Source: Clostridia bacterium
GTDB taxonomy: Bacteria; Bacillota; Clostridia; Oscillospirales; Acutalibacteraceae
Assembly (NCBI GenBank): GCA_017436255.1
Contig: JAFSDK010000038.1
Coordinates: forward strand, 388 to 64,387
DNA length: 64,000 nt
Reading direction: 5' to 3'
The translations under genes were made by a program, and so were the position numbers. Shown here piece by piece: positions 676 through 15,997 of this stretch. Within the stretch, counting starts at the first letter, position 1. The number at the start of each line of letters is the position of its first letter. The notes beneath the pieces were generated by a model that was not told where the DNA came from, did not search any database, and saw only the letters and a list, made by a program, of their open reading frames with translations.

Positions 676-702
676 ATCTCGTTCTCCTAAATTAAAATAG
701 AA

Positions 703-3700: not shown

Positions 3701-6700
3701 TTACCATACGCGTTATAGGTGTACTCAATAACAAGTCCGCGATAATCCTGAGTCTTGATAAGATTGTGCTTGCTGTCATACTTGTAGTCCGTAGTATAGC
3801 TGCGACCGTTTCTGTCAATGACAGTGGTGCGTACAATATCAGAATCATCATCGGTATAATCGATGGTGGTAAGAACGCTATCCTTTTTGGTCGTAGTCAT
3901 CTTAATATCCTTGCACTCACCAAATACATTGATCGAATCAATGGGAGTCTCGTCAGTTCTATAAGCATTCGTAGTAGAAATACCATCCACCGAGACGAGT
4001 CTCGCATTGGTAAAGTAACAAGTTCCGGTGTTACCGGTGTAATCCAGCTTGACTGTAATACTGATCGGGCAACATTCTTTGTTCAAAACGAAGGGAATTG
4101 CAGCATACTGCCAACCGGTGTAGCCCACGTCATAGTTTTCAAAATGTTCCTCGGCTTCACCGCCTTCATAGGTGACTTTGAGGCAAAGTCTGAACTTTGC
4201 ACTGGAATTATCAGATTCTGCAGTAACGTTGCCGGAGGCTTTAGCCCAAGCAGAGGCAACAAGGACATTACCGTTCAGCTGACAATTACAAAGGTCAATC
4301 GTTTGTGACAAATATTTGCTATAACCTGAGGAAGTAAATCGATACGATTTCTTTCCGTTAATATAACTTTGCGAAACGATGCTTCCACTGCCAACGGCAG
4401 ACCAGCCAATAGGCTTGGAAGAACTGTTGACTTCGGTGAAGAAACCATTCTGAATGAAATTAGTTTCATCAGCAGAATCATTGCTCATCGCCACAGACAA
4501 AGAACGGTATTTACCGATTCTACTGGTTTCCAAATTGTCAACGATCGATTCGTAGCCGGAAATCTCGGTAATAGTAGATTCACTGATCTCAGAAGAATCT
4601 GTAATATCGGTCATATCCTGATACGAGCTTAATTCACGACCGTTTGCATCAAACTTATAAACCGTTTTGATTTTGGTTCTATCGTTGACGATTGCTGTGG
4701 ACTTGGCACGATACTCAAAAGAGATAGAGTCGTCCTGAATCTCATTAGATGTAGTAACGCTATTATCAGCAACAACGGTTTTGCCGCTGGTGGAGAGTGT
4801 TTTTACTCGTCCGTTCGCATCATATCCGATGGTATATTTGATGCCGGTATAATCAATCACCTGTTCGAGTCGTGAGTTGGCGCCATATACGAACTGTGTC
4901 TGGAGAGTTCCCTCGTTAGAATAAGCTGTATCAGCAGAAGGATAGGTGATTGAGGTCAGCTCACCGGAGGAATTGTAATCGTACAGAATTGCACGATCCA
5001 TGTCACCGTTATCAACAATCTTGGTCAGCATTCCGGAGTTATCATAATACAACTGCGCGGAATGGTTAGTTCCGTCTACAACGCTGCTAAGTCTGCCATT
5101 GGTGTAGTTGAGGCAGCTTACGTTGCCGTTTGTGTCGATAAGCTGGATAAGCTTGCCGGCACTGTTGAAAGTCATCTTGTTACCTTTTTCATCAGTCAAG
5201 ATGTGGGTGGTTGCGTGACCGCAAACACAGTTGCACTCTTCCTTATAGGTAAGTCCAAGTCCTGCATCGTCCGTGATTTCTCCGCTGGAATTGGTTTCTC
5301 CGTACATAAAGTAGTGGCGCTTGCCTTGTGCATTGGTGTACACAGCCATAATTCCATGCTTGTTGATAATTTCCAATGTCTGTTCTACAGAAAGCTTCCA
5401 GCCCTTACCGTATCGGTTAATAGAATTCTGTTCCTCGTTTACAAACTCATGACGGTACAGGTGAGAAATAGACAAAGGCAACTTAACGCCTTCGACAGTT
5501 ACATCTCCATGGGCAAAGGACATCTTTCCGGTGAAAAGATTGATGGAACCCGTTCCCGCTCTGCCGTTTTCAAACGTGTGGAACTTCTGGTGATCGGAGT
5601 ACATATCCGTACTGGTATATTCAATATACATCTTGGGACGGTAGCTATAGCTTGCATACAGAGAATAAAGGTCAAGATACGTAGAAACGCAGCTACCGTT
5701 GCAGCAGCAAGTCTCCTCATTGTTCTTCTTAATAACGATGCACTTTTCTTTTATAAAGGTCTTAGTAGGATCGTACCACTTTTCCATTGCAGCAGTCATA
5801 TCAATCTCAATCTCGGTTGCTGCGCGACGGTAGTATCCTCGAAGAGTATCAATGGCTGTTTCCATAGTCAGATTTTGTACATTTGCCCAGTTGAACGAAG
5901 AAACAGAAAGCGTTTTTCCATTCGGGTCAACCACGGGTGCAATTGTATAATCTTCAATATTGCCGTTATAAGATGCATAGGATTTTTGATGCATAAGCAA
6001 CCCGGCTTTGGTGATCTTGAATCCATCGGCAAGCGTAGGGAGGTTAAAACCGATATACAGGCGATGGATATTGCCGGAAGAATCGACACCAATACGTCTT
6101 CCGGTGTTTGTGTCGGTTGCCGTTACTTTGTTCCCGTTAGAACAAAGTTCTACCAACTGTAGGCTGTTACCGCTATACCGTGAGATCTCTACACGCGGAT
6201 CGATCACAACAGGATATGCGCGTTCGGGATCGGAAAGCCAATCGCTATCCAGCACCAGATCAAGGAAGGTGCCCTCATCCGTCTTGCGGATCTCATAATG
6301 AATATCGTCGCAAAAAGCGTCGTTTGCATCTTCCATATATGCGGGAGGAATCTTCATTTCAGGCATTTCTGAATCAAGATCGTCATCATCGCGAACAAGC
6401 GATACTACCTTTTTATCTTCGCTCAGAACAGGAAGAAGCCCTTTGAACTTCATCTGGAATGTGAATGTTTTACAGTCGGGATTCTTTGTAAGAACGATGG
6501 ATTCCTTCACGCCGTCATCAGAAACATCGTATTCCAGATCGACATTGATATCAGCTCTCTCGTACTTTACAGAAGGATGATCGCCAATATCCCAAGGGTC
6601 GCGCTTCATCTTGTGAGTGAAGGATGCCATTGATTTCTTGCGGCGAGATGTACTTCTCGGGATAAATTTCCACGAGATTTCTCGACTGTCTTTTTCTACG

Positions 6701-7020
6701 GTGACAAAGTGTTCTTTGCCTTCTGTCTTTGGCAGTCTAACCTTGAAGCAAGGCATAATTGCTTCATAATCGGTATCTGTTTCCGTAACTTCAGACGAGA
6801 TATCCACAAATTTGCCGGTATCGGGATTCAGCTTATGGATAGGATGGTCATACATAACCGCCATGAAGTTACCGTTTTGAAGGCGGAAATGCTTGATATT
6901 AGCTCCGCGCTTCGAGGTGTCTTCATACAACACCTTCGATGTTGAAGGCTTCTTTTCTTCAAGTGTTAATTCTTCAACTTCAACATCATTGATAAAAAAA
7001 TCTTTGTTTTCGTTAATCAT
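703..7020 (-). CDS. RHS/YD-repeat polymorphic toxin, 2105 aa
   Basis: ORF track. Many YD-repeat units (YDANGRVK, YKFDANGREL, YTYDAKGNVTK, YTYDKAGNLE). RHS core end motif YYDPEVGRFINADT...NLYAYCGNNPVFARDDEGN. AAGGA lies 8 nt upstream of ATG 7020. The N-terminus MINENKDFFINDVEVEE has no hydrophobic signal peptide or LXG/WXG-like signature by eye. Confidence 0.9.
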   Translation of the reverse strand: MINENKDFFINDVEVEELTLEEKKPSTSKVLYEDTSKRGANIKHFRLQNGNFMAVMYDHPIHKLNPDTGKFVDISSEVTETDTDYEAIMPCFKVRLPKTEGKEHFVTVEKDSREISWKFIPRSTSRRKKSMASFTHKMKRDPWDIGDHPSVKYERADINVDLEYDVSDDGVKESIVLTKNPDCKTFTFQMKFKGLLPVLSEDKKVVSLVRDDDDLDSEMPEMKIPPAYMEDANDAFCDDIHYEIRKTDEGTFLDLVLDSDWLSDPERAYPVVIDPRVEISRYSGNSLQLVELCSNGNKVTATDTNTGRRIGVDSSGNIHRLYIGFNLPTLADGFKITKAGLLMHQKSYASYNGNIEDYTIAPVVDPNGKTLSVSSFNWANVQNLTMETAIDTLRGYYRRAATEIEIDMTAAMEKWYDPTKTFIKEKCIVIKKNNEETCCCNGSCVSTYLDLYSLYASYSYRPKMYIEYTSTDMYSDHQKFHTFENGRAGTGSINLFTGKMSFAHGDVTVEGVKLPLSISHLYRHEFVNEEQNSINRYGKGWKLSVEQTLEIINKHGIMAVYTNAQGKRHYFMYGETNSSGEITDDAGLGLTYKEECNCVCGHATTHILTDEKGNKMTFNSAGKLIQLIDTNGNVSCLNYTNGRLSSVVDGTNHSAQLYYDNSGMLTKIVDNGDMDRAILYDYNSSGELTSITYPSADTAYSNEGTLQTQFVYGANSRLEQVIDYTGIKYTIGYDANGRVKTLSTSGKTVVADNSVTTSNEIQDDSISFEYRAKSTAIVNDRTKIKTVYKFDANGRELSSYQDMTDITDSSEISESTITEISGYESIVDNLETSRIGKYRSLSVAMSNDSADETNFIQNGFFTEVNSSSKPIGWSAVGSGSIVSQSYINGKKSYRFTSSGYSKYLSQTIDLCNCQLNGNVLVASAWAKASGNVTAESDNSSAKFRLCLKVTYEGGEAEEHFENYDVGYTGWQYAAIPFVLNKECCPISITVKLDYTGNTGTCYFTNARLVSVDGISTTNAYRTDETPIDSINVFGECKDIKMTTTKKDSVLTTIDYTDDDSDIVRTTVIDRNGRSYTTDYKYDSKHNLIKTQDYRGLVIEYTYNAYGKELTRKTYHKDTTGTYMFSEHTYQDGSFVKTESDPRYMLNGEKLKTTYQHDTSRNLLLKQTAVNGQEYSYSYDDTTDDLMSLSSTVENKTNENQFFYTRGYLTRVAHNGFNFGFAFDQFGRSKSVSVGDASVSTTLLTMNYEKDGVNDITETVFATGEKNRVTTDILGNPIVSTYTDKNNIERIISNATYDSVGKVKQLVDNERGICYNYTYDAKGNVTKIVETDTNGNILATNTFVFDANERLTSKTYGAVGQTYRPVYEKNANGYVYPDNEVMGITLDGKFTDKVTKDGLRRAIAKTFQIGSRTLFSESYGYLSTPKDGKTIATEIVSSVASHVYGTSANSSTLGYTYDKAGNLETISNGTSLLSKYYYDGLNRLKREDNHIAGKTFVWDYDVGGNILFKKEYALCTDVNLGACLDTKTYTYKSEGWRDRLDSFDGQTCTYDLMGNPLTYRGNTLTWTKVRRLASFGTNTFEYGASGIRYRKNDTVYTLDGNKILRESDGVRTLTYYHGGSGIVGFEYNGTDYYFRKNLQGDVTEIYTSAGLKVASYTYDAWGKVLAVNNYTDDNIGDINPIRYRSYYYDVETGLYYLNSRYYDPEVGRFINADTTSVLEDAMYDINGLNLYAYCGNNPVFARDDEGNMSFWKKLAIAAAVVVAVVVVSAAVAAATVATGGAAGAALCAAGTVLAGAAKGALVGAAVGAATGAVVGGVQGAVEGYQETGTVEGTLRGMGKGAVKGAVQGAADGMISGMVSGAFAGAAMSMSGNPMFCFVAGTTVLTTLGKKTIETIQVGDTIPCVDHITGESAEKRVITTTVNKVDRLIELDIDGEIIHCTETHPFQVKGRGWVNASNLAPNDIVYAKDWNTATVKSVNLIELDEPVEVFNFEVEDCHTYFVGDNFVLVHNASCTQQGSYEIFAKNKKGIDQVYVGKGPQSRMQASMRRLQRQGYTITSSPQWTPAANSKIAFIDEYMKMSKYDFDFGGKLINKIMSPGFKIFNSWL
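706..993 (-). other. C-terminal toxin tip of the RHS protein (96 aa), possibly a GIY-YIG/URI-type nuclease
   Basis: Residues after the HINT terminal HN: ASCTQQGSYEIFAKNKKGIDQVYVGKGPQSRMQASMRRL...IDEYMKM...LINK. A Tyr, 13 residues, then YVG, followed by Arg, Glu and Asn, resembles the GIY-YIG signature. The spacing is about 3 aa longer than in I-TevI. By-eye call only. Confidence 0.4.
994..1398 (-). other. Pre-toxin HINT (intein-like) domain of the RHS protein
   Basis: CFVAGTTVLT...HCTETHPF...HTYFVGDNFVLVHN. It has the first Cys, a TxxH block and a terminal HN. The residue after HN is Ala, not Cys/Ser/Thr. Confidence 0.75.
1399..1782 (-). other. Gly/Ala/Val-rich hydrophobic segment (PT-TG-like pre-toxin module)
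   Basis: 128 aa: MSFWKKLAIAAAVVVAVVVVSAAVAAATVATGGAAGAALCAAGTVLAGAAKGALVGAAVGAATGAVVGG...QETGTVEGTLRGMGKGAVKG...SGAFAGAAM. It sits between the RHS core end and the HINT domain. Confidence 0.55.
3991..4464 (-). other. Non-YD insertion in the RHS body, possibly a CBM-like jelly-roll
   Basis: aa ~853-1010: NFIQNGFFTEV...GWSAVGSGS...VASAWAKASG...YTGWQYAAIPF...CYFTNARLV. It interrupts the YD repeats. The resemblance to CBM4/9-type modules is by eye only. Confidence 0.3.
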
Positions 7021-7036
7021 TTTGTTTCCTTTCTTT

Positions 7037-8257
7037 TTAGTTCTTTAATTTGATTTCCAATATCTGAGGAGCCGAATAACAATCTCCCGTAGATATTGCA
7101 ATAAAGTCGTTTTTGCCTTTCGGCTTTTTTAGAATTAGTCCTTCATTGTAGACCAATGTGCGATCGGTACGATTTACAAAAATCGTGGTTACATCAACTG
7201 TTAGATATCTGCAATTGTTATTTGAAACAGTGATTTTAGGAGAAGCGTTAATCTTTTTGTTCCAAGTAGAACCAAAACTACAAAAGCGTTTTTCGGGAAT
7301 GTAGACATCAACATTTTCTGAGCTACCGTTTAAAATCGGAATATGAAGTAGTACTTTTTCTATACGTTCTGATACGATATCAGGGATTTTTGAAAAGTCA
7401 GGTCTTGAATATAGCCACTGTTCACCAAACTCCTTTGTTTTTCCGATAAAGCCAACCGCACCGTATGCATTGTTAACGTCAGGATGAGCACTTTCTACGG
7501 TTGTATCTTGAAACAATTTAGGTTCATATAAATTCACTTCGAATATAAGAGATCCATTTTTCCCGGAATGAAACAGGGAAATGTCATAGGTTTGATTGCC
7601 TTTATCCAAATACTTTATTTCAACCGGTAAAACCTTGTTCTTTTCATCTCGTGCATATAAACTTGCAACGGAAAGAAATGGCTTAAATTTTTCTTTCATT
7701 ACAGAGAAACACAAGGAATTAGATCTTATGCTATCTTGCTTTGCCTCCGATCTAAGCTGTAATTGAAAACTGTTTCCTTTCACTGTAAAACGCAAGCCAC
7801 ATAAGGTCGGAGTGATAATAACATTTGACTTGGAAGCAGTATCTTTTTTATATATTTCAGGCACTTCCGACATAGTAATCGTACATCTTCCATCATTGTT
7901 TTCAAAAATGCAATGATTTTGATTAACTGAGATTAGTCCGTTTGTACCTTTGAATACTGCTCCGGTTTTATTTGTTGTGAAATTTGTCTGAACCAAAGTT
8001 TTTGTTTTGATATTGTATATTGGTGTGCTAAAACAGTAGGCTGTATTCCCAACTGATTCCTTTACCATAATACGATATCGGTTACTATTCCTTCTGTCGA
8101 TAATAAAATCGCTCATACCTCGAAGATATTTTATTTCTTTTAAGATCGCATTATATTGGTAGTCATTTTTGCTGCTCTTTATATTTATCACCTCCTGTTC
8201 AGAGCACTGTAAAATCCAATGGTTATCCGGTGTCACTTTGTTCCATAGGATATACAT
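7037..8257 (-). CDS. Hypothetical 406-aa protein, apparent stand-alone paralogue of the RHS N-terminal module (DNRLRE-like C-terminal half)
   Basis: ORF track; ends 16 nt before the RHS start. The segment LYEPKLFQDTTVESAHPDVNNAYGAVGFIGKTKEFGEQWLYSRPDFSKIPDIVSERIEKVLLHIPIL...STWNKK parallels RHS aa ~270-380 (VVIDPRVEIS...GRRIGVDSSGNIHRLYIGFNLPTLADGFKITKAGLLMHQ...FNWANV). No clear SD precedes ATG 8257, so the start is uncertain. Confidence 0.6.
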   Translation of the reverse strand: MYILWNKVTPDNHWILQCSEQEVINIKSSKNDYQYNAILKEIKYLRGMSDFIIDRRNSNRYRIMVKESVGNTAYCFSTPIYNIKTKTLVQTNFTTNKTGAVFKGTNGLISVNQNHCIFENNDGRCTITMSEVPEIYKKDTASKSNVIITPTLCGLRFTVKGNSFQLQLRSEAKQDSIRSNSLCFSVMKEKFKPFLSVASLYARDEKNKVLPVEIKYLDKGNQTYDISLFHSGKNGSLIFEVNLYEPKLFQDTTVESAHPDVNNAYGAVGFIGKTKEFGEQWLYSRPDFSKIPDIVSERIEKVLLHIPILNGSSENVDVYIPEKRFCSFGSTWNKKINASPKITVSNNNCRYLTVDVTTIFVNRTDRTLVYNEGLILKKPKGKNDFIAISTGDCYSAPQILEIKLKN

Positions 8258-8317
8258 AATATAAGTCGTTTTACAGTCTGCGCACTACTGCATTACGACT
8301 ATGGCTGTAGTATAAAT

Positions 8318-8348
8318 GTTAACCACGACAGTTAGTGTCATAGTTAAA
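8318..8348. promoter_or_regulatory. 31-bp imperfect palindrome, copy B of a motif shared with 13835-13865
   Basis: GTTAACCACGACAGTTAGTGTCATAGTTAAA versus CTTAACCCTGACAACTAGTGTCAGGGTTAAA: 24/31 identical. Consensus TTAACC-NN-GACA-NN-TAGTGTCA-NN-GTTAAA. It lies in the 99-nt gap between the CYTH gene and the 406-aa/RHS genes. In the minus-strand RNA the two arm mismatches become G-U pairs. Confidence 0.6.
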
Positions 8349-8356
8349 AAAGTTTT

Positions 8357-9127
8357 TTAATAGTGCTCGTAATAACAAGAACCGGATGGGGACTGACACG
8401 AGTAACCGTCGAAGTTCCCACAAGACATACACACGCTTTCACCGGGCATCATTGAGTCGAAGTAGTCGTGCATATAATCGTCGGGATCCAAATAATCGAA
8501 TGTTCTGTTATAGTTCTTTGAAGCATGGAAAGCAGGTGCTTGAGAGGTAGCTTTTGTACTACTCATTCTCTCAAAGAATCTGCTCGATTTGCTTGGAACG
8601 TCAGGTACTTCCTTAAGGCTTTCCTTGTAAGCAAGAAAGCACTTGCGACGTGTAAGCATATCTTTGAAAATGTTCAAGATCACCTGCGCATCCTTTTCGT
8701 GTTCGGGCGCATACTCGATTTCAAGCTCAAAGTCTTTGTGTCCGAGATACTCATTCTTGTCAAGTACAGCTTCGCAGTGGGCATCCTTGAGCACAACGAA
8801 ACGTTGGGTAACAAGTTCACCTTGAAGTTTCAAGCCCATATCGGTAAACGCATTGCTTTCAAGTCCATTGCGGATTTCCATTTCGGTTTCCGTACTCTGA
8901 TCGCCGCCCGATGCGTGCTTTTTCATCGTTGCCTTATACTTTCCGTCTTTCAAGCGGATTCGGCAGGTCGTGTCCTGACTGTTCATCGAGAAGTCGTCGG
9001 TGTCAAAGTAGTAATTGACCTGCGTGGTGAGGGGCTTTTGAATCAATGGACTCTCATAGCCCAAGTGTTCCATCAGATAGTCATACTCATCTTCTGTGAG
9101 CAGTAATTTCTTTTCAAGTTCAGTCAT
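8357..9127 (-). CDS. CYTH-domain (triphosphate tunnel metalloenzyme / class IV cyclase-like) protein with a Cys/Tyr-rich C-terminal tail
   Basis: N-terminal MTELEKKLLL carries the ExExK signature. Its ATG overlaps the ligase stop (ATGA) and AGGAGG lies 8 nt upstream. The tail ends ...PGESVCMSCGNFDGYSCQSPSGSCYYEHY. Confidence 0.7.
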   Translation of the reverse strand: MTELEKKLLLTEDEYDYLMEHLGYESPLIQKPLTTQVNYYFDTDDFSMNSQDTTCRIRLKDGKYKATMKKHASGGDQSTETEMEIRNGLESNAFTDMGLKLQGELVTQRFVVLKDAHCEAVLDKNEYLGHKDFELEIEYAPEHEKDAQVILNIFKDMLTRRKCFLAYKESLKEVPDVPSKSSRFFERMSSTKATSQAPAFHASKNYNRTFDYLDPDDYMHDYFDSMMPGESVCMSCGNFDGYSCQSPSGSCYYEHY

Positions 9128-10500
9128 AGCATTTTCCTCCTGATGATTTTTCCGGAACCGTTTTTTGGTATTTCATCTAACAGATTGATTCGTGCGGGTA
9201 TTTGATATGTCGAAAGATTGCACCGGCAAATATCCTTCACTTCAGAAACATCAGAGAAATCACCTGTGATATTAAGTTCAATCTGTACACCTAATTTATC
9301 ATCCGTATAGCCGCGAACAAAGACGTCCTTTACACGATAGTCAAGTTTTAGCGCACTTTCAATCTCCTGCGGATAAATATTCATTCCCGCTTTTATAATC
9401 AGATCGTCGCTGCGTCCTTTAATCTTTAACAAGCCTTCCTCAGTAAACAGAGCTAAATCACCGGTACACAACCAGCCATCCTTTAACACTTCCGAAGTCT
9501 TTTCGGGATTGTTGTAATAACCTGCCATAACATTATCGCCTTTTACCCACAGTGTACCGATTTCATTCGCATTAACCGGAAAACCATCAGGGGAAAGAAT
9601 CTTTAAAGAAATCGAACGCAACGGCACACCCACACAATCAGCGTGTTCTCTGAATTTATTTGGTGGCAGATATGAAACTCTCGGACACGCTTCTGTAAGA
9701 CCGTAGATATGATATACATCCGCATTTGGAAACGCTTCGGATATATGTAGACCTGTTTCCATGCTCATGCATTCGCCGCTGATACAAATATGACGCAAAA
9801 AATCATTATCCGTTTCCCTTTTAAATCGCGCCATCATAGAAAGCAACGTGGGCGTTCCGCAAAAAGCGGTTATACCGTATATTTTCAACATCTTAAGAAC
9901 AATCGCTGGATTAAACGTGCCGGAATAAAAACGAATTTTTACTCCTTTTACAAGAGCGGTTAAAAACTCTCCTGTAAGGACCGCACAGTGATACAAGGGT
10001 CTTGAAATCAATATTGTGTCTGACTTTTCCATACCAAAATAAAGAGCAATATCAGATACATTTGTCATTACATTGGATTCAGTCAACATTGCACCCTTTG
10101 GCACTCCTGTTGTTCCAGATGTACACATAATCAATGCGGGATGAATACATGGTTCCTTGTAAACGGAATCCTTAATATAAATAATATGAAAATCCCCATC
10201 CTGATCGGTAATTACAGCGTCCGGGCTAATGGCGTCTAAAATTTTATTACAATGTAGCTCACCGTATCTTTGCGACAACGGTAACGCTGTCACACCTGCC
10301 GCAAAACAGCTAAGCAGCGCCATACTCGTTGCGATCTCAGACTGACATAAAATAGCGCAACACTTAATACCCTTCAACCTTTTTGAAAATTCTTCTGTAA
10401 AAACTATCACCTCTTCAAATGTCATTGAAACATCGTTCTCACAGATTTCCTGTTGCAGATTTAACTGCATTTTATTTTTGAGATACTTCCACAGTTTCAT
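9124..10500 (-). CDS. ANL-superfamily adenylate-forming ligase (acyl/aminoacyl-AMP ligase, probably loads the adjacent ACP)
   Basis: Motifs MCTSGTTGVPKG, YGLTE, WLCTGD, GRSDDLIIKAGMNIYPQEIE, PKNGSGKIIRRK. I chose the start at ATG 10500 (AAGGAG 7 nt upstream) rather than the ORF-track start at 10530. Confidence 0.85.
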   Translation of the reverse strand: MKLWKYLKNKMQLNLQQEICENDVSMTFEEVIVFTEEFSKRLKGIKCCAILCQSEIATSMALLSCFAAGVTALPLSQRYGELHCNKILDAISPDAVITDQDGDFHIIYIKDSVYKEPCIHPALIMCTSGTTGVPKGAMLTESNVMTNVSDIALYFGMEKSDTILISRPLYHCAVLTGEFLTALVKGVKIRFYSGTFNPAIVLKMLKIYGITAFCGTPTLLSMMARFKRETDNDFLRHICISGECMSMETGLHISEAFPNADVYHIYGLTEACPRVSYLPPNKFREHADCVGVPLRSISLKILSPDGFPVNANEIGTLWVKGDNVMAGYYNNPEKTSEVLKDGWLCTGDLALFTEEGLLKIKGRSDDLIIKAGMNIYPQEIESALKLDYRVKDVFVRGYTDDKLGVQIELNITGDFSDVSEVKDICRCNLSTYQIPARINLLDEIPKNGSGKIIRRKML

Positions 10501-11503
10501 TTTCAAGCTCCTTTTCTGCTTTATCAACAAGCAATGTTAGTAAATATTTTTCTTTGTCGGCCAAATTTAAAAGTTTCTTCTTAATAATTGGCAAAACAGA
10601 ATCCCTGCGTTTCATATGATGCGAAGCATACAACATACGCATCATATCCGCATCAGAAACTACGCTCTTATACTGCTCACTAATCTCATCCGTCAAATTC
10701 AAGCATTGTTCGATACATACTATTCTCTCAAGCATTGCCTTTTTATGTTCCCAAATCAAGCGGAACACACGCCTATCCATTCGTTCATAAGGGATATCTC
10801 CGTTATAAAGCTTCGTCACATATTCTGCAATATACTCATGAACTACTAAACCATAAGCATTGCCCTCTTCATCAAACGGATGTTTTTTTAAATCCGAATC
10901 AAGATATTCTTTAATCTTTTGGCAAGCAATCTTAGGGGAAAATTCGATTTTATCCCCCTTTACCTTTAATCCACAGAAACGGCTAAAAATGCCCTTTTTT
11001 CGCATTGCAACTCTTCCTGCATTAAAGTCTTTTTGTGACACCCAAAACTTTTGATAGATCCAATTACTGTCATAGGCATAAACACAATAGGTTTTATCGT
11101 TTTGGTCATATCCACAAATTAAACCGTCGTGGCTAAAATGACGTTCTTTATACCAGCTTTTTCCTTTTATATAAAAATCATCTACACGGCCGAAAGCAAC
11201 ATAAAAGCCCTTATCGAGCATTTGGCGTATGATCGGGTTAATATAACCGTTTGTAAATTCTGAAGATAACCAATATCTATCTAAATACGGGTTAACAGAC
11301 CACGATGAGCCTGCAATAGTTATTTGAGGTGTTGTGAAACCAGTTAAGAATTTTTTGCTGCATGTAAGATTCATCACCTGATTGAGATACCAATTACGCA
11401 CAGACTGATTGTTTCCTATAATAGCAGTTCCCGGTCCTTGGTAGTGATAAGTTTGATACAACGGTTCTATCAATGGTAATTCAACATGCTTATTCATTTT
11501 CAT
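10472..11503 (-). CDS. Hypothetical 343-aa protein; possible papain-fold (C39/BtrH-like) transferase
   Basis: ORF track, trimmed to MKMNKHVELPL because the longer N-terminus overlaps the ACP gene. The only motif I can point to is SHDGLICGYDQNDKTYCVYAYD, an H-x4-GYD pattern typical of papain-like peptidases/acyltransferases. I recognise no family with confidence. Confidence 0.5.
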   Translation of the reverse strand: MKMNKHVELPLIEPLYQTYHYQGPGTAIIGNNQSVRNWYLNQVMNLTCSKKFLTGFTTPQITIAGSSWSVNPYLDRYWLSSEFTNGYINPIIRQMLDKGFYVAFGRVDDFYIKGKSWYKERHFSHDGLICGYDQNDKTYCVYAYDSNWIYQKFWVSQKDFNAGRVAMRKKGIFSRFCGLKVKGDKIEFSPKIACQKIKEYLDSDLKKHPFDEEGNAYGLVVHEYIAEYVTKLYNGDIPYERMDRRVFRLIWEHKKAMLERIVCIEQCLNLTDEISEQYKSVVSDADMMRMLYASHHMKRRDSVLPIIKKKLLNLADKEKYLLTLLVDKAEKELENETVEVSQK

Positions 11504-11735
11504 CACCGCAATATTTAGCAACCATATCAATAACATTTTGTACAGTGCCAAGATCAAAAGGATTCATGTCTGCTTCGTCTAATTCAATATCAAAAGCTTC
11601 TTCTATTTCAACAAGCATAGTTACCATCATAAGACTGTCAAGTGCAAGATCTCCTTGTAAATGGTCAGTATTTTCAACGGTTTCTTCGCCACTGAGTTCG
11701 CATAAAATTTCCTTTACCTTAGTTTCGATATTCAT
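11490..11735 (-). CDS. Acyl carrier protein
   Basis: 81 aa, acidic, with the phosphopantetheine-site motif GDLALDSLMMV. Its ATG overlaps the upstream stop (ATGA). Confidence 0.8.
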   Translation of the reverse strand: MNIETKVKEILCELSGEETVENTDHLQGDLALDSLMMVTMLVEIEEAFDIELDEADMNPFDLGTVQNVIDMVAKYCGDENE

Positions 11736-12367
11736 TTATTCATCACCCTTTCCACTTCTCTTTTTACAATTGCATAACATTCCTCAATAGGCATTTCAGT
11801 AGATATCAATACACCGTTATTCGCTCTGCAAATTTTAATATATTCATCTCTAAGCTTATGTTGGAGTTCCATATCAATATATCTGTCCTTCTCTTCGATA
11901 CGGCTCCTTACACGTTTTACAGCGGTTTCAACCGGAACATCAAAAAAGAATGCAACATCCGGTTTAACAACTGACTCAGCAATCTCATAAATCCACTGGT
12001 CGTTTTCAAAACCACGTGCACGTAAATTAGCAAGACAGGAATAAAAATATCTATCACTGATAACAACATTACCCTGTGCCATCTGCGGTTCAATAACTTT
12101 ATTAACATGCTGCAAACGATCACTGGCCGCCAAAAGTGACAAACTTCTATAGTCGTAAGCATCATGGTCAGGATTATCCATATAGGTTCTAAAAATATCT
12201 GATTCTCGAACCGCATTGGTAGGTTGTTTTGTCTTGAAGGTTTGAAACTTTTCTCCCAATTCCTTTTCAAGCCTGGTTAACATTGTGCTTTTACCACAGC
12301 CATCAAGTCCACAAAAGGTAAATAAAAATCCCGGTGTATTATTAGGTCTCATATTTAGAGTCTTCAC
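11732..12367 (-). CDS. Thymidylate-kinase-like P-loop nucleotide kinase
   Basis: FTFCGLDGCGKST P-loop (compare the FEGLDGAGKST type), ISDRYFYS, lid-like RVRSRIEEKDR. GTG start with GGAGG upstream. Overlaps the NTase gene by 26 nt. Confidence 0.7.
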   Translation of the reverse strand: MKTLNMRPNNTPGFLFTFCGLDGCGKSTMLTRLEKELGEKFQTFKTKQPTNAVRESDIFRTYMDNPDHDAYDYRSLSLLAASDRLQHVNKVIEPQMAQGNVVISDRYFYSCLANLRARGFENDQWIYEIAESVVKPDVAFFFDVPVETAVKRVRSRIEEKDRYIDMELQHKLRDEYIKICRANNGVLISTEMPIEECYAIVKREVERVMNK

Positions 12368-13439
12368 TATGATTCACCTCCTCCAAAAGTGCCTTTCTGT
12401 TATCTGCAAAAAAGCGTTCTAGAATATTGCGTTCCGTAAAAACCAATTCCTTTTTATCCTTTGGAGAAATAATTCTGTGAACAAAATCCAAATCATAACC
12501 CAATGCTTTTGTAGCAACTTCTATTGCATACTGATTTCTAAAGTTAAACAATTCTGCCGTATGCAATACAGCGAATGCGCAAACTTTTTCCATACTAAGC
12601 TTCTCTGCTCTGTCAAAAATGGAATCAACATATTTCTCGTCAGCATCGTTAAGAAGCATATAAATATCGCAATATTTGTACAAAGTCATATCGCGCATCA
12701 TTTCCACCCACGGCAGAGTTGTAGCTTCCTTATAAAGATGACTGCACAAATGAACAAAGAAATCATCTGCTCTCAAAGTGCGAACTCTGAAATCCCCCAA
12801 CTTCACAAACAGCGTGTTATTCATCATCTCTTCAAGAAGATCTGTATCTCCCGGTTTGTAATCCAACGAGAAATTAATATCAACCTCCAAAAACTGCATT
12901 CCGGGAAGATTAGTTTCCTTAATATACGGTACGGTCTCTCCGCGCATCATTTTAGATTCAATTATTTCCTTGCGTGTTGCAGCTTCGAATTTACCGTTGC
13001 GAACATTGCCCTGTTTAAATCCGGCAACAAGCAATGCATTTCCCACCTCTGTAACATCCTTAGGGTGTACAAGCAAATCAATATCATTTGAAGTTCTATA
13101 ACCTTCTGGATATGCTTTACAGAGATAGGCACCTTTTAACATCGCATATTTGCATTCACAACTGGAAAGTGCCTTCTCCACAAATTCAACACACTGAAAA
13201 AAGCTGTTGTTTTTTTCGATGCTTTGCATAGACGCACCCTTAAGAGAATTTCTAAATTCTCGATTTACCTTACCTAACAAGCCATGTTTCTTAAGGATTC
13301 CATAGGCTACTGCCTGCATACGGTTAAAGAACAAGTGTCCCAAAACTGTAGGTGTGGCAGCATCAAGCAAACTCTCGTCAAAATCCATCTCCTTGAAACT
13401 ACATAAACTTTTAAATAATTCTTTTTCCTTTTGTCTCAT
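12342..13439 (-). CDS. Nucleotidyltransferase-fold protein (uncharacterised NTP_transf_5-like family)
   Basis: YAMLKGAYLCKAYPEGYRTSNDIDLLVHPKDVTEVGNALLVAGF matches the LKG...R..DiDlLV...a..L...Gf pattern I recall for that family. 365 aa. Confidence 0.6.
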   Translation of the reverse strand: MRQKEKELFKSLCSFKEMDFDESLLDAATPTVLGHLFFNRMQAVAYGILKKHGLLGKVNREFRNSLKGASMQSIEKNNSFFQCVEFVEKALSSCECKYAMLKGAYLCKAYPEGYRTSNDIDLLVHPKDVTEVGNALLVAGFKQGNVRNGKFEAATRKEIIESKMMRGETVPYIKETNLPGMQFLEVDINFSLDYKPGDTDLLEEMMNNTLFVKLGDFRVRTLRADDFFVHLCSHLYKEATTLPWVEMMRDMTLYKYCDIYMLLNDADEKYVDSIFDRAEKLSMEKVCAFAVLHTAELFNFRNQYAIEVATKALGYDLDFVHRIISPKDKKELVFTERNILERFFADNRKALLEEVNHSEDSKYET

Positions 13440-13452
13440 AATAAATTTCCTT

Positions 13453-13800
13453 TCAATTTTTTTGTTTTGTATATTGCGAGATAATAAACTTCAGCAAATT
13501 GTTTTCTTCCATACTCAGATTACATACAGCTTTTTCATCTGCGAATTTAGATAATTTATGTAATACAGATAATTCTTTATCGGTCATATACATTCTGCTC
13601 ATTGAATAATCGTCTGTGACAAAAACTCCTCCATATCTACCACACTGGGTATAGATAGGTTCCATAACACTTAGTACTTCTATATCTCGCAAAATCGTTC
13701 TTGTGGAAACGCCGAACTCTTCTGCTAAATTTGAAATTGTTTCGTGTCTTCTCCGGCACAGTACACGCATTATTTCTGTCCTTCGTTCAGCAGTTCCCAT
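13453..13800 (-). CDS. Small HTH transcriptional regulator (DeoR/YafY-type N-terminal HTH, no obvious ligand domain)
   Basis: MGTAERRTEIMRVLCRRRHETISNLAEEFGVSTRTILRDIEVL. I chose the start at ATG 13800 (AGGAGG 7-8 nt upstream). It ends 13 nt before the NTase gene. Confidence 0.7.
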   Translation of the reverse strand: MGTAERRTEIMRVLCRRRHETISNLAEEFGVSTRTILRDIEVLSVMEPIYTQCGRYGGVFVTDDYSMSRMYMTDKELSVLHKLSKFADEKAVCNLSMEENNLLKFIISQYTKQKN

Positions 13801-13834
13801 TCGTACTCCCTCCTTTCTTGAACACAGTTTAAAA

Positions 13835-13865
13835 CTTAACCCTGACAACTAGTGTCAGGGTTAAA
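13835..13865. promoter_or_regulatory. 31-bp perfect palindrome, copy A (TTAACCCTGACA-ACTAG-TGTCAGGGTTAA), candidate operator
   Basis: 12-bp perfect arms. The centre lies about 50 nt upstream of the regulator ATG. It shares 24/31 positions with 8318-8348. Confidence 0.6.
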
Positions 13866-13879
13866 CTAAAAAAATAAAA

Positions 13880-13921
13880 AATTCCAAATCAATGTGTGTA
13901 TTACATTGATTTGGAATTTTT
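13880..13921. terminator. Strong bidirectional rho-independent terminator / insulator
   Basis: 16-bp perfect stem AATTCCAAATCAATGT / ACATTGATTTGGAATT with a 7-nt loop, an A-run before and a T-run after. Confidence 0.75.
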
Positions 13922-14294
13922 CACTGCGACAATAAAGGCCCCATATTGCAAAAAAGATAAAAACTATGGATTGCAATTCGAAGCAACCATTTCTGAATTA
14001 CATTTATACAACTTTACTGAAAAAGATATTTATAAAATAACAAATCGCTCATTCAATAAGATTAATATATGAACGAATTCTTTACTTCTCTTGCCATAAT
14101 TTCAAGTTTTAGTGTGTTTTCATCAAAAGTTAAGATAGTTTCTATAAGTGGCCATAAATACAGTCTCATTTTTAACAACTATACTATAGCCTATCTGATT
14201 TTGAAAAGTTTTGCAACAATACCGTCAAAAAATGAAGTGTTATTATAGTGGTTCGATTAGCCTATGTATTTATTTTTTAATGGCATTTTAATAA

Positions 14295-14432
14295 CACTCG
14301 GGAACATCAAGGGAGGTAGGCGTAAACCTTAAGCAGGGTTACAACGGCGATTTAACATCTAAGCAGGCCGGCTCAATCGGTGGACAGATGGTTAAGAAGA
14401 TGATCGAATCTTACGAAAATAGCATGAAATAA
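14295..14432 (+). pseudogene. 5-prime-truncated alpha/beta-type small acid-soluble spore protein gene
   Basis: My translation gives HSGTSREVGVNLKQGYNGDLTSKQAGSIGGQMVKKMIESYENSMK*. The part from EVGVNLKQGYNGDLTS onward matches the conserved C-terminal half of alpha/beta SASPs. An in-frame TAA lies at 14292-14294 and no start codon follows, so about 30 N-terminal residues are missing. Its own terminator is retained. Confidence 0.65.
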
Positions 14433-14445
14433 ATTTTATAGCACA

Positions 14446-14478
14446 AAAGACAGAGCAATATATATTGCTCTGTCTTTT
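14446..14478 (+). terminator. Rho-independent terminator of the SASP relic
   Basis: AAAGACAGAGCAAT-ATAT-ATTGCTCTGTCTTT followed by T. Confidence 0.7.
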
Positions 14479-14532
14479 ACTTATGAATTGATTTTTTACC
14501 GATTTTATGGTAAAATAACTCTGGTGATTTTC

Positions 14533-15690
14533 ATGAATTTAAAAATTGGTTTACTTAATGATTCTTTCCCGCCCACTATTGATGGTGTTGCTAACTGTGT
14601 TAAAAACTATGCGGATATTATTGCTGCCAATTACGGTACGCCAACCGTTATAACCCCTGAATATCCACACGTTATAGACAACTATCCATACGAAGTTTAC
14701 AGATATTCTTCGGTTAAATTCAGGGGCAAAATGCCATACCGTGTTGGTAACCCCTTCTCACCCGCTTCAATACTAGAATTAAAAAGCAAAGGGTTTGATA
14801 TACTGCACAATCACTGTCCGTTTGCTTCAGGTTTGCTTTCTCACTATATTGCCGGAAAAAAAACGCCCATAGTTTTTACATACCACACTAAGTTTGATAT
14901 TGATATTGACAATTTTGTGCACAACGAACAGTTTAATACCATATCTAAAAAGTTCATTCTTAACAACATAAATTATTCCGATGAAGTTTGGTGTGTATCT
15001 CATGGCTCGATTGAAAGTCTTAGAAATCTCGGCTATAAGGGTAACGTACACGTTATGCCTAACGGCACTGATTTCAAAAAAGGCAAATCTAGTATCGGTG
15101 CAATTAATGACATCAGGCGAATCTATAAAATTGACGAAACTACGCCCGTATTTGCATTTTGCGGACGTATGATGTGGTATAAAAACATTAAACTAATTCT
15201 TGATGGACTGAAACTACTTAAAAATGATGGATACAAATTTAAAATGTTGTTTATTGGTGGTGGTCCGGACCGCGCCGCAATTGAACAATACTCAAATTAT
15301 TTAGGCTTATCTGCTTACGTTGAATTTACCGGACCAATTTATGACCGTGAAAAGTTACGCGCAATTTACAGTTGCATAGATATGCTTCTTTTCCCTTCAA
15401 CATACGATACTTCGGGACTTGTTGTCAAGGAGGCTGCCGCATGTGATTGTGCAGCCCTACTAGTTAAAGGAAGTTGCGCCAGCGAAGGTATAACAGATGG
15501 CGTTGATGGTGTTTTGATTGATGAAACACCAAACAGTTTGGCGTATACGCTGGCTAAGGTAATTAATACGGAGGGTTTGTTTGAAAAACTTGGAAAAGCA
15601 GCATCCAACAATATATACTTCACTTGGGAACAGGCCGTTGAGAAAGCATACGAGCGTTACCAAAATATAATTGATAAAAAATCTAAATAA
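14533..15690 (+). CDS. GT4-family glycosyltransferase (possibly a glycolipid synthase)
   Basis: MNLKIGLLNDSFPPTIDGVANCV N-terminus and the GT-B C-terminal E-x7-E region (STYDTSGLVVKEAAA). The start was moved from TTG 14488 to ATG 14533. Confidence 0.75.
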   Translation: MNLKIGLLNDSFPPTIDGVANCVKNYADIIAANYGTPTVITPEYPHVIDNYPYEVYRYSSVKFRGKMPYRVGNPFSPASILELKSKGFDILHNHCPFASGLLSHYIAGKKTPIVFTYHTKFDIDIDNFVHNEQFNTISKKFILNNINYSDEVWCVSHGSIESLRNLGYKGNVHVMPNGTDFKKGKSSIGAINDIRRIYKIDETTPVFAFCGRMMWYKNIKLILDGLKLLKNDGYKFKMLFIGGGPDRAAIEQYSNYLGLSAYVEFTGPIYDREKLRAIYSCIDMLLFPSTYDTSGLVVKEAAACDCAALLVKGSCASEGITDGVDGVLIDETPNSLAYTLAKVINTEGLFEKLGKAASNNIYFTWEQAVEKAYERYQNIIDKKSK

Positions 15691-15757
15691 TTTTTCAAGC
15701 GGTATTATGTATATTTAACTCATATTGTTGCAAAATACTAACAAAGGAGTTGATATT

Positions 15758-15964
15758 ATGTTAGACCGCATTTGCCTAATTTTAGTAATCCTTGGTGCAA
15801 TTAACTGGGGAAGCATCGGTATCTTCCAGTTTGACATTGTTGCTTGGATTTTCGGCGGCAGCGATGCACTACTCGCGCGAATCATTTATACGGTTATCGC
15901 ACTTGCAGGTATTTGGTGCATTTCACTTCTTTTCAGACAAAGAAATGAAATTATTGAAAAATAA
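15758..15964 (+). CDS. DUF378-like small membrane protein
   Basis: MLDRICLILVILGAINWGSIGIFQFDIVAWIFGG; AAAGGAG 8 nt upstream. Confidence 0.6.
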   Translation: MLDRICLILVILGAINWGSIGIFQFDIVAWIFGGSDALLARIIYTVIALAGIWCISLLFRQRNEIIEK

Positions 15965-15967
15965 TAA

Positions 15968-15997
15968 AAAGGAATAGTCGCTTGACTATTCCTTTTT
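15968..15997. terminator. Bidirectional terminator between convergent genes
   Basis: AAAGGAATAGTC-GCTT-GACTATTCCTTT followed by a T-run. Confidence 0.7.

Follow-up and report, generated by a model that had tools for sequence, protein, structure and literature searches.

A conserved operon joining carrier-protein and nucleotide chemistry as the probable core of strain-variable weapon islands in gut Clostridia

Why genes of carrier-protein chemistry should be interleaved with genes of nucleotide chemistry next to a giant polymorphic toxin is the question raised by seven minus-strand genes (13800..8357) in a 64-kb stretch of contig JAFSDK010000038.1 from a Clostridia bacterium of the Acutalibacteraceae (assembly GCA_017436255.1), hereafter called the window. 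In order of transcription, the genes encode a winged helix-turn-helix (HTH) regulator, a nucleotidyltransferase, a Tmk-like kinase, an acyl carrier protein (ACP), a 343-aa protein called X, an ANL adenylating ligase and a CYTH enzyme. As described below, the seven genes are one conserved operon, which, with regard to its architecture and regulon, is very probably the autoregulated, conserved core of a strain-variable weapon island. A fuller explanation, in which the enzymes of this weapon-island operon also tailor the proteins of the regulon, is the best we can offer for the locus as a whole, and is put forward tentatively.

A first-pass annotation made from the sequence alone had described seven packed and overlapping minus-strand genes with ATGA junctions and Shine-Dalgarno sites, and all of these features were reproduced. 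Specifically, seven co-directional minus-strand open reading frames (ORFs) are present in the ORF listing, ATGA overlaps lie at 11732-11735 and 9124-9127, the remaining overlaps are 14, 26 and 29 nt, the single gap is 13 nt, and Shine-Dalgarno sites are found upstream of the chosen starts in the operon genes. The family assignments, which had been made from motifs by eye, were each recovered by profile search (Table 1).

We then asked how far this gene set is conserved by scanning one genome per species (GTDB r232), which gave 131 genomes with a relative of X; loci from 80 of these were analysed. These 80 genomes are from uncultured gut or rumen Clostridia throughout, labelled as Acutalibacteraceae, Oscillospiraceae, Ruminococcaceae, Faecousia, Christensenellaceae and similar. 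Gene linkage was scored by tblastn of the window proteins, and counts were restricted to loci with enough flanking sequence; note that tblastn detects short or fast-evolving genes incompletely and that the relatives, like the window itself, come from metagenome-assembled genomes. The nucleotidyltransferase and the kinase were each colinear on one strand in 70 of 73 loci, the ACP in 69 of 73, the ANL ligase in 69 of 71 and the CYTH enzyme in 54 of 71, and the HTH protein, whose short length limits the sensitivity, was colinear in 58 of 73. The kinase was the best-conserved protein in most loci (60-93% identity), and the CYTH enzyme was the least conserved in most loci (33-61% except in three) and was missing from the more divergent ones. 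Across protein identities of 48-88%, six or seven genes remained colinear and overlapping. The seven genes are one conserved operon. Comparison across genomes, which the first-pass annotation had named as one check on its proposal, found the genes travelling together, with RHS or other cargo. In addition, viral contigs were searched and gave no relative of X, indicating that the module is not phage-borne.

The operon and the toxin genes downstream of it are each preceded by a palindrome of similar sequence (operators 1 and 2 in Table 1). In the related loci the palindrome reads TTAACC(C/T)(T/G)GACA-N5-TGTC(A/C)GGGTTAA and occurs in 95 copies in 1.21 Mb, compared with 0.45 copies expected from shuffles, and a TAnnnT box lies 4-10 nt past the 23-nt palindrome core at 93 of the 95 sites. 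In most loci with upstream sequence it lies ahead of the HTH gene, ~57 nt from where the match begins, with a terminator hairpin directly before it, and it recurs ahead of each downstream cargo or lysis unit. The genes directly behind palindromes encode the HTH protein (or the nucleotidyltransferase, which directly follows the operator in L031, L052, L060 and L070, related loci without an HTH gene), DNRLRE proteins, RHS giants, Rv2525c-like proteins, S8 giants, a lone X paralogue, and a lysis cassette of XhlA-like, holin and amidase genes. Since the palindrome overlaps the -35 region, spanning approximately -45 to -17, it is likely to be a repressor-type operator. Palindromes as terminators were considered and rejected, as they have no T-runs, stand in front of genes and have -10 boxes after them.

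When 50 HTH proteins were aligned, the column most informative on operator type (0.91 bit) was in the recognition helix (RTI-x-RDI). Of the 27 loci whose operators read TGACA, 23 have Leu at this position, and of the 21 with GGACA, 20 have Arg or Gln; contact between Arg and a guanine makes chemical sense. Operator statistics, promoter geometry and covariation together point to the HTH protein as the likely regulator of the enzyme operon, the toxins and the lysis genes, and we infer from these sequence features that it is an autoregulator and a repressor of the regulon. Co-regulation with the adjacent RHS toxin, one of three possibilities raised in the first-pass annotation, is strongly supported by the operator in common and by the conserved cassette linkage.

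Several other features of these promoters were observed. In L025 (14171-17310), a large serine recombinase gene with a ~51-aa conserved ORF ahead of it lies between two identical palindromes, and the same gene pair is found behind a single palindrome at the contig end in L092 (19942-21098). A second role of the palindromes in recombination or cassette exchange is conceivable; fixed promoter geometry and HTH covariation favour an operator over a recombination site. A GCAGCTG box is present ~8 nt past the -10 in cargo promoters (L006:2985-3080, L014:7871-7970, L026:12952-13050 and L058:7960-8050), and Rv2525c-like cargo genes have a hairpin with a GGGACGC loop in the 5' untranslated region (UTR); box and hairpin may constitute a second cis-regulatory layer. 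An Rfam scan of window positions 1-16000 gave sub-threshold chance matches only, and the palindromes and 5' UTRs matched no RNA family.

What the operators control besides the operon was examined in the loci with at least 9 kb of downstream sequence. DNRLRE, RHS, Rv2525c-like or Big_2 cargo was present on the same strand in 33 of these 38 loci, and RHS cargo in 21 of 38. The order seen in the window, that is, the operon followed by a ~375-aa protein with no Pfam match and a ~2000-aa RHS protein, recurs in independent genomic neighbourhoods. Alternative cargo on the same strand comprises Rv2525c-like glycoside-hydrolase-like proteins followed by Big_2-repeat or Big_2-RHS giants, as well as S8-protease giants and membrane-anchored metallophosphoesterases. 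Furthermore, an assembly of the same species matches the window at 99.6% identity between 23439 and 9083, a strain-level recombination breakpoint 45 nt into the CYTH gene. Beyond this point the assembly has another CYTH allele, together with an S8 giant, small ORFs, a gene for a DNRLRE protein and one for a serine recombinase. This divergence indicates that the cargo is strain-variable and that the constant part ends at the start of the CYTH gene; the constant/variable boundary is inside this gene, not at the end of the operon. An association of CYTH alleles with cargo class was considered and rejected, as the alleles do not track it.

In the window, the first cargo gene (7037-8257) encodes a protein matching the NCBIfam model DNRLRE_dom (E 1e-6), and the same domain is found in the N-terminal region of the RHS protein. 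On the basis of this match, and of N-terminal sequence motifs that the two proteins have in common, we judged the DNRLRE protein to be a likely paralogue of the RHS N-terminal region; direct BLASTP similarity between them was insignificant. The RHS protein consists of a DNRLRE-containing N-terminal region, DUF6531, an RHS shell, a Gly/Ala-rich hydrophobic stretch, PT-HINT and a short C-terminal toxin. Its N-terminus is acidic and, by eye, without a hydrophobic signal, the DNRLRE protein has no signal peptide, and no LysM domain or Pfam domain for type VI or type VII secretion targeting was found in the window RHS protein. The cargo thus appears, on inspection by eye, to consist of extracellular-type proteins without signal peptides. 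The Gly/Ala-rich stretch (window ~1380-1790, RHS residues ~1745-1880), around which the GC content rises to ~0.50, compared with 0.36-0.44 elsewhere, may be a membrane-insertion segment. We also observed a perfect sigma-70 consensus, TTGACA-17-TATAAT with an upstream TG, at window positions 3076-3104 (-) on the coding strand within the RHS ORF, which could be a promoter for the RHS 3' part or for downstream immunity genes, or could be due to chance.

The giant proteins have N-terminal sequences in common across cargo families. The motif [EQ]E[IL][YV]L[AEV]PE occurs within the first ~25 residues of both RHS and S8-protease giants (examples in Table 1), and in Rv2525c-like class B proteins the N-terminus is instead a conserved MAC[KR] with a variable linker behind it; such motifs could serve in targeting or modification. 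For class-C cargo, an apparent N-terminal Cys-Gly-Lys-Gly motif was rejected, since by eye it is the translated Shine-Dalgarno region.

Lysis cassettes are a further part of the regulon. Their genes belong to the Phage_holin_5_2 (E 1e-24), Amidase_2 (E 3e-13) and XhlA-like families, and a cassette was found within 10 kb in ~20 of the 80 related loci. A metallophosphoesterase with an N-terminal transmembrane segment recurs in the regulon (L037:5869-6780, L064:13194-14160 and L060 at ~10790), and in some loci it takes the place of the endolysin after the XhlA-like and holin genes.

Table 1. Features of the operon, its surroundings in the window, and cargo examples from related loci
Feature	Position	Strand	Description
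Terminator-like hairpin	13876..13922	-	20-bp stem and T-run, directly upstream of the operon promoter
Putative operator 1	13836..13864		29-bp palindrome TTAACCCTGACA-CTAGT-TGTCAGGGTTAA
-10-like TAAACT	13826-13831		After operator 1; palindrome spans ~-45 to -17 of the operon promoter
Winged-HTH regulator, 115 aa	13453..13800	-	HTH_11, E 8.7e-8
NTP_transf_5 (PF14907) nucleotidyltransferase, pol-beta fold	12342..13439	-	E 4e-31
Tmk-like P-loop kinase	11732..12367	-	Thymidylate_kin, E 3.3e-28
ACP	11490..11735	-	PP-binding, E 3.3e-11; DSL serine S34
Protein X, 343 aa	10472..11503	-	Predicted papain fold, by Foldseek on the AlphaFold2 (AF2) model
ANL adenylating ligase	9124..10500	-	AMP-binding, E 9.4e-53
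CYTH triphosphate-tunnel enzyme	8357..9127	-	CYTH, E 3.9e-15
Putative operator 2	8319..8347		Palindrome TTAACTATGACA-CTAAC-TGTCGTGGTTAA, marking the toxin-cassette promoter
-10-like TATACT	8309-8314		Follows operator 2
DNRLRE-domain protein, 406 aa	7037..8257	-	First cargo gene; alternative call starts at 8236
RHS polymorphic toxin, 2105 aa	703..7020	-	DUF6531, RHS repeats, PT-HINT
5'-truncated alpha/beta SASP gene	14298..14432	+	Pfam SASP, E 2.6e-19, profile positions 20-59 of 59
Giants with the N-terminal motif (examples)	L092:15000-15080, L025:17380-17440, L005:14312-14390

To obtain more insights into the chemistry of the operon, we characterized its proteins individually. Residue conservation was counted in 50-78 orthologues, depending on the protein, and catalytic motifs were conserved in the orthologue alignment of every operon enzyme, so that the enzymes look active. 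Protein X matched no Pfam, NCBIfam or PADLOC profile, and a PDB sequence search gave only chance-level ZinT matches. Its homologues form 787 clusters at 90% identity, all of ~340 aa and none annotated, and a profile search of 1.84 billion representative proteins retrieved 2121 relatives. An AF2 model built from 43 homologous clusters had a mean confidence (pLDDT) of 89.2. In a Foldseek search of this model against the PDB, the top match was AziU2-U3 (E 6e-10, TMq 0.55), followed by CcbD and its complexes with a peptidyl carrier protein domain (E 4e-7 to 7e-6), and then by phytochelatin synthase and other papain-like enzymes. The Pfam model BtrH_N was matched by 9 of 25 remote X homologues, with a best E of 3.6e-7. 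C48 (76 of 77 orthologues), H122 and H125 (77 of 77 each) and D145 (74 of 77) are conserved, C48 sits before a helix in the model, and C48, H125 and D145 are candidate catalytic residues.

BtrH, LmbD/CcbD, CtaG and AziU3 are known papain-fold ligases that take a carrier-protein-bound acyl group and form an amide. The fold matches, the BtrH_N homologues and the near-invariant C48, H122, H125 and D145 suggest that X represents a new branch of such ligases; X is, by its predicted fold, a papain-fold, carrier-protein-dependent and amide-forming condensation enzyme of the BtrH/CcbD/AziU3 superfamily. The genes for ACP, X and ligase overlap in the window and are colinear in 69 of 71-73 loci. The first-pass annotation could not place the 343-aa protein and had proposed it as a putative transferase partner of the ligase and the ACP, a proposal with which the modelled BtrH/CcbD-type fold agrees. 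Remote X homologues lie in clusters with radical-SAM, ABC-transporter and S8-peptidase genes that resemble peptide-maturation loci. In addition, lone X paralogues are found beside toxin cargo without ligase, ACP, kinase or nucleotidyltransferase in L064 (5042-6130) and L085 (9962-10996), and the paralogue in L064 has its own operator in front.

The predicted partners of X in acyl chemistry are the ligase and the ACP. The ACP scores against DltC models (E 4e-9), and its DSL serine S34 is invariant. In the ligase, the motifs TSGTTG.PKG (A3), YGLTE (A5), GR.DD (A8) and GSGK (A10 lysine) are conserved in 76-78 of 78 orthologues, and the nearest enzymes are feruloyl-, fatty-acyl-, o-succinylbenzoyl-, oxalyl- and chlorobenzoyl-CoA ligases. 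By eye, the ligase bears the PLYH motif of acyl-CoA synthetases and not the amino-acid-binding Asp, suggesting that its substrate is a carboxylic acid and not an alpha-amino acid.

The kinase scored 101.7 bits against TIGR00041, the thymidylate (dTMP) kinase model with a cut-off of 83.25. Its GLDGCGKT/ST, SDRY and RVRSR motifs are invariant or nearly so, and the DRY motif and the LID arginines are retained. When aligned to Thermus Tmk, however, TREPGG is replaced by TKQPTN, LLF by LLA and AYQ by ANL, and across 76 orthologues the replacements TKQPT, A80, N114 and L115 show little or no variation. In Tmk structures, dTMP is bound by the TREPGG loop, by the stacking Phe and by the Tyr-Gln of AYQ. 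dTMP was therefore rejected as the probable substrate on these replacements, and to call the protein a thymidylate kinase would be to name the wrong substrate; with the dTMP contacts replaced and the phosphate-handling motifs kept, the kinase is likely to phosphorylate a phosphate-bearing acceptor other than dTMP.

The nucleotidyltransferase scored 108.9 bits against PF14907 (cut-off 31.2), and its Asp triad is conserved, with D119 in 50, and D121 and D187 each in 51, of 51 orthologues. A model with a pLDDT of 89.7 gave weak fold matches, MenT1 being the best (E 9e-4, TMq 0.33), followed by TM1012, ANT(2'')-Ia and LnuA; as these matches are only weak, we draw no conclusion on the substrate from them. 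The protein is 100% identical to an NCBI entry. The PDB sequence search gave no match to the nucleotidyltransferase, and a match to AbiEii was below threshold (E 2.2e-4, 21.7 bits against a cut-off of 22.5).

In the CYTH enzyme, E3, E5 and K7 (ExExK), R56, R58, K69, E134, E136 and E138 are conserved in 56-57 of 57 orthologues, and the nearest solved relatives are BH2851 and GBAA_1210. The protein carries a Cys-rich C-terminal tail of ~65 aa (~8357-8560) ending in CMSCGNFDGYSCQSPSGSCYYEHY, which is found in a subset of relatives only. The CYTH length of 256 aa is also seen in L023, L046, L047 and L091, with 251 aa in L052, and the CYTH protein of L008 (L008:12376-13410) has a different extension of ~150 aa. 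A PPC domain in the latter extension was unsupported (E 0.72).

Given these assignments, the operon could encode two arms of one pathway. In the acyl arm, the ligase would adenylate a carboxylic acid and load it on the dedicated ACP, from which X is predicted by its fold to take the acyl group and form an amide with an amine. In the nucleotide arm, as judged from the residues kept and replaced, the kinase would phosphorylate a phosphate-bearing substrate other than dTMP, the nucleotidyltransferase would join a nucleotidyl or phospho-linked group to an acceptor, and the CYTH enzyme would hydrolyse a triphosphate by-product or trim the product. The two arms would converge in the cytoplasm on one N-acylated, phospho- or nucleotidyl-linked group, which would arm, anchor or prime the regulon proteins for release of the holin/endolysin type. 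Such tailoring of the signal-peptide-less proteins of the regulon is suggested by the operon being the constant partner of variable cargo, by the remote X homologues in peptide-maturation-like clusters and the lone X paralogues that stay with cargo, and by the PsmN precedent described below together with the lack of a conserved exporter and the N-terminal motif common to the RHS and S8 giants. Indeed, neither an exporter nor a scaffold-building enzyme is conserved in the operon across the related loci. We regard this tailoring as possible but doubtful, and hold no more firmly its more specific form, that the operon is a dedicated arming pathway placing an acyl-phospho(nucleotidyl) mark on the signal-less giant toxins or their adaptors that is required for release or delivery.

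Several points weigh against the explanation as a whole. The solved relatives of X all act on small-molecule acceptors, the weak fold matches of the nucleotidyltransferase are to antibiotic nucleotidyltransferases and the MenT toxin, and the usual substrates of Tmk-family kinases and CYTH enzymes are small phosphates. A pair of Tmk and PF14907 proteins has been reported flanking phosphoenolpyruvate (PEP) mutase, which also points to small-molecule chemistry. On the side of the regulon, no recognisable cargo was found within 10 kb in 5 of the 38 loci, the window has no lysis cassette over its 64 kb, the cargo families are diverse and gave no motif common to all of them, and class B and C cargo are without an N-terminus of the EEIYLAPE type. 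Furthermore, the covariation between HTH protein and operator could derive partly from the shared ancestry of two clades, and gene calls in the relatives are sometimes broken because all are metagenome-assembled.

The points concerning small substrates bear on a different explanation, namely that the enzymes make a free N-acyl nucleotide or N-acyl phospho-amine serving as an inducer of the HTH protein, and so as an autoinducer-like switch of the toxin and lysis regulon, or as a cofactor or a co-released antimicrobial. We consider such an effector also doubtful, yet nearly as likely as protein tailoring; these two readings correspond to the other possibilities of the first-pass annotation, an acyl/aminoacyl-nucleotide small molecule and the tailoring of a protein or peptide. 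Along this route, X would acylate an amine-bearing nucleotide, the kinase and the housekeeping Ndk would convert it to a triphosphate, and the nucleotidyltransferase would use this triphosphate, with CYTH limiting it. Consistent with this, the solved relatives of X acylate small molecules, the kinase pocket is invariant, enlarged by the change of the stacking Phe to Ala and of a non-dTMP type, the nearest folds of the nucleotidyltransferase include ANT(2'') and LnuA, which act on antibiotics, and the Tmk and PF14907 pair also flanks PEP mutase. The enzymes are co-transcribed with a regulator whose predicted operators control toxins, a layout typical of regulator/signal-synthase pairs. A further precedent is the biosynthesis of altemicidin, in which a carrier-protein-tethered acyl group is reported to be moved onto a dinucleotide scaffold (PMC11685415). 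However, the loci have no exporter in common (in L080, protein sizes alone hint at an ABC pair), the HTH protein has only ~55 residues beyond its DNA-binding domain and could hardly accommodate a ligand pocket, lone X paralogues are kept beside cargo where the other enzymes are missing, and five or six enzymes are a heavy investment for a signal. A product destined for the cell wall is less probable than either of these. In this case the operon would modify a cytoplasmic nucleotide-activated wall or teichoic-acid precursor, loosely like Dlt and Lic decoration, making the producer resistant to, or properly decorated for, its own wall-binding or wall-degrading regulon proteins. The regulon is indeed wall-directed (Amidase_2, Rv2525c-like proteins, membrane-anchored metallophosphoesterase, and the DNRLRE and Big_2 surface-type domains), the ACP matches DltC models (E 4e-9), and the logic of a kinase with a nucleotidyltransferase fold resembles LicA/LicC/LicD; in addition, the operon is on the promoter of the autoregulated regulator and not on a TATACT/TATAAT-type cargo promoter, and may therefore be expressed uninduced. 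On the other hand, the operon encodes no membrane protein and no equivalent of DltB, DltD or LicB, the Lic pathway uses other families of kinase and nucleotidyltransferase, and polymorphic toxins normally have cognate immunity proteins, so that self-protection by this route is improbable.

Defence against phages, which the first-pass annotation had linked to the RHS toxin, finds no support in the searches. In an abortive-infection system, the enzymes would sense phage or make a nucleotide signal, and the derepressed RHS toxin and lysis cassette would kill the cell. PADLOC v2 recognised no defence system; the HTH protein gave a partial match to WYL/CasR/CARF3-type regulator models, the kinase matched PDC-M51B (E 2e-15), VakA (E 3e-14) and marginally PtuA, and nothing was found for the other five operon proteins. 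The weak kinase matches to these PADLOC candidates, the resemblance of the HTH protein to the N-terminus of WYL-type regulators, and the presence of signal-less toxins together with lysis genes under one regulator would fit such a system, but no PADLOC model matches the nucleotidyltransferase, ACP, X, ligase, CYTH or DNRLRE protein, the cargo bears the hallmarks of interbacterial polymorphic toxins (an RHS shell, PT-HINT, and C-terminal and cargo regions that vary between strains), and viral contigs do not carry the module. We consider abortive infection very unlikely. Still harder to believe is that the parts are unrelated, with the HTH and nucleotidyltransferase genes forming an AbiE-like pair, the other genes belonging to some ordinary cluster of metabolism or biosynthesis, and the RHS gene lying next to them by accident. 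The sub-threshold AbiEii match, the best fold match to MenT1 and the HTH gene directly upstream would be explained in this way; however, six or seven genes are colinear and overlapping at 48-88% identity, the nucleotidyltransferase occurs without HTH in L031, L052, L060 and L070, which would be lethal if it were a toxin, and the common operator and the 87% cargo linkage rule out chance adjacency.

Tailoring of toxins by the operon has partial precedents. In the biosynthesis of the lasso peptide pseudomycoidin, PsmN adds a group to the phosphate installed by the kinase PsmK (PMC6993621). The statement in the first-pass annotation that kinases accompany such nucleotidyltransferases in lasso-peptide tailoring is therefore correct for the pair as published, but the kinase there is of the HPrK type, not of the Tmk type. 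As in PsmK/PsmN, a kinase stands beside a nucleotidyltransferase in the operon; note that PsmN is described as a member of an uncharacterised family, and the likeness is one of description. Unlike in the pseudomycoidin cluster, a lasso cyclase, B1/B2 proteins and a precursor peptide are absent among the called genes of the window and the related loci. The pathways of BtrH, CcbD, CtaG and AziU3 (butirosin, lincosamide, closthioamide and azinomycin, respectively) resemble the operon in the predicted fold of X and in the dedicated carrier with its adenylating enzyme, and X has a conserved set of Cys, His and Asp as candidate catalytic residues. They differ in that aminoglycoside, thiosugar or polythioamide genes are lacking here, the partners are a Tmk-like kinase, an NTP_transf_5 protein and a CYTH enzyme, and the operon is wired to toxin and lysis genes, unlike BtrH-type antibiotic clusters. 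HlyC and CyaC arm RTX toxins by acyl-ACP-dependent acylation, with the acyltransferase gene upstream of the giant toxin. By analogy, an enzyme likely to use acyl-ACP stands upstream of a giant toxin in the operon as well, but HlyC has another fold and uses the cell's own ACP, RTX toxins leave by type I secretion, and nucleotide enzymes take no part.

The likeness to Dlt lies in a short ANL ligase paired with a small carrier protein that matches DltC models; unlike in Dlt, neither DltB (MBOAT) nor DltD is found in the operon or the related loci, the transfer enzyme is predicted to be a soluble papain-fold protein, and the ligase resembles acyl- or aryl-CoA ligases, not DltA. The likeness to AbiE and MenT lies in an HTH autoregulator directly upstream of a pol-beta nucleotidyltransferase with weak AbiEii and MenT1 similarity; unlike in AbiE, the AbiEii score is below the Pfam cut-off, the HTH protein is not AbiEi-like, the nucleotidyltransferase is sometimes without HTH, and the operon has six enzymes.

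On the cargo side, the RHS protein resembles WapA/Rhs toxins, for example Streptococcus suis WapA (PMC12704120), in its N-terminal DNRLRE domain, RHS shell, variable C-terminal toxin and strain-variable cargo. It differs from WapA in having no Sec signal, LysM, sortase or SecF-like partner, in the PT-HINT and Gly/Ala-rich stretch before the toxin, and in the paralogous stand-alone DNRLRE protein encoded upstream. The Tc toxin of Yersinia includes an RHS-type component. Release of signal-less large toxins by holin/lysis cassettes has been reported for C. difficile with TcdE (PMC10516005) and likewise for the Tc toxin of Yersinia entomophaga (PMC10847048). As in type 10 secretion and the pathogenicity locus (PaLoc) of C. 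difficile, giant signal-less toxins are here predicted to be co-regulated with phage-derived holin and amidase genes in ~20 of 80 loci. Unlike in PaLoc, control would be by a small HTH protein and a palindromic operator, and not by a TcdR-type sigma factor, and the six-enzyme module has no counterpart in the PaLoc and Tc toxin systems. To our knowledge, the release and arming of giant signal-less toxins by Gram-positive anaerobes is a largely open question, and the known PaLoc and Tc cases consist of holin/endolysin and regulator only.

Full-text literature searches found no description of this gene combination with RHS or polymorphic toxins, and none of the family under its name NTP_transf_5, with PF14907 turning up in a phosphonate inventory. 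The view of the first-pass annotation that no characterised pathway, envelope locus or defence system has this gene set therefore holds for the literature and PADLOC searches made here. The parts are from known enzyme superfamilies, but as a set they correspond to none of the systems compared here: a single operator type ties a six-enzyme pathway to lysis cassettes and to exchangeable giants of the RHS, Big_2 and protease kinds. Should the enzymes act on the toxins, they would represent a novel form of toxin maturation and an accessory export or activation route; should their product be a small molecule, a new acyl metabolite linked to a nucleotide would control or accompany warfare between gut bacteria. 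The locus also supplies a defined operator/regulator pair, a new functional context for the uncharacterised PF14907, a Tmk-like subfamily with a non-dTMP pocket, and a probable new branch of BtrH/CcbD-type ligases.

Finally, we inspected the upstream edge of the island. The terminator-like hairpin at 13876-13922 is likely to shield the island from read-through; many related loci have a similar hairpin (AACCTGGCAAAT...ATTTGTCAGGTT) upstream of the operator, and the hairpin may be a part of the island as its insulator. The truncated gene that had been noted as bounding the accessory block was found to be the 5'-truncated SASP gene (14298-14432, +). This remnant faces the island over ~430 nt of AT-rich non-coding DNA, and the truncated gene may be the scar of the island insertion.

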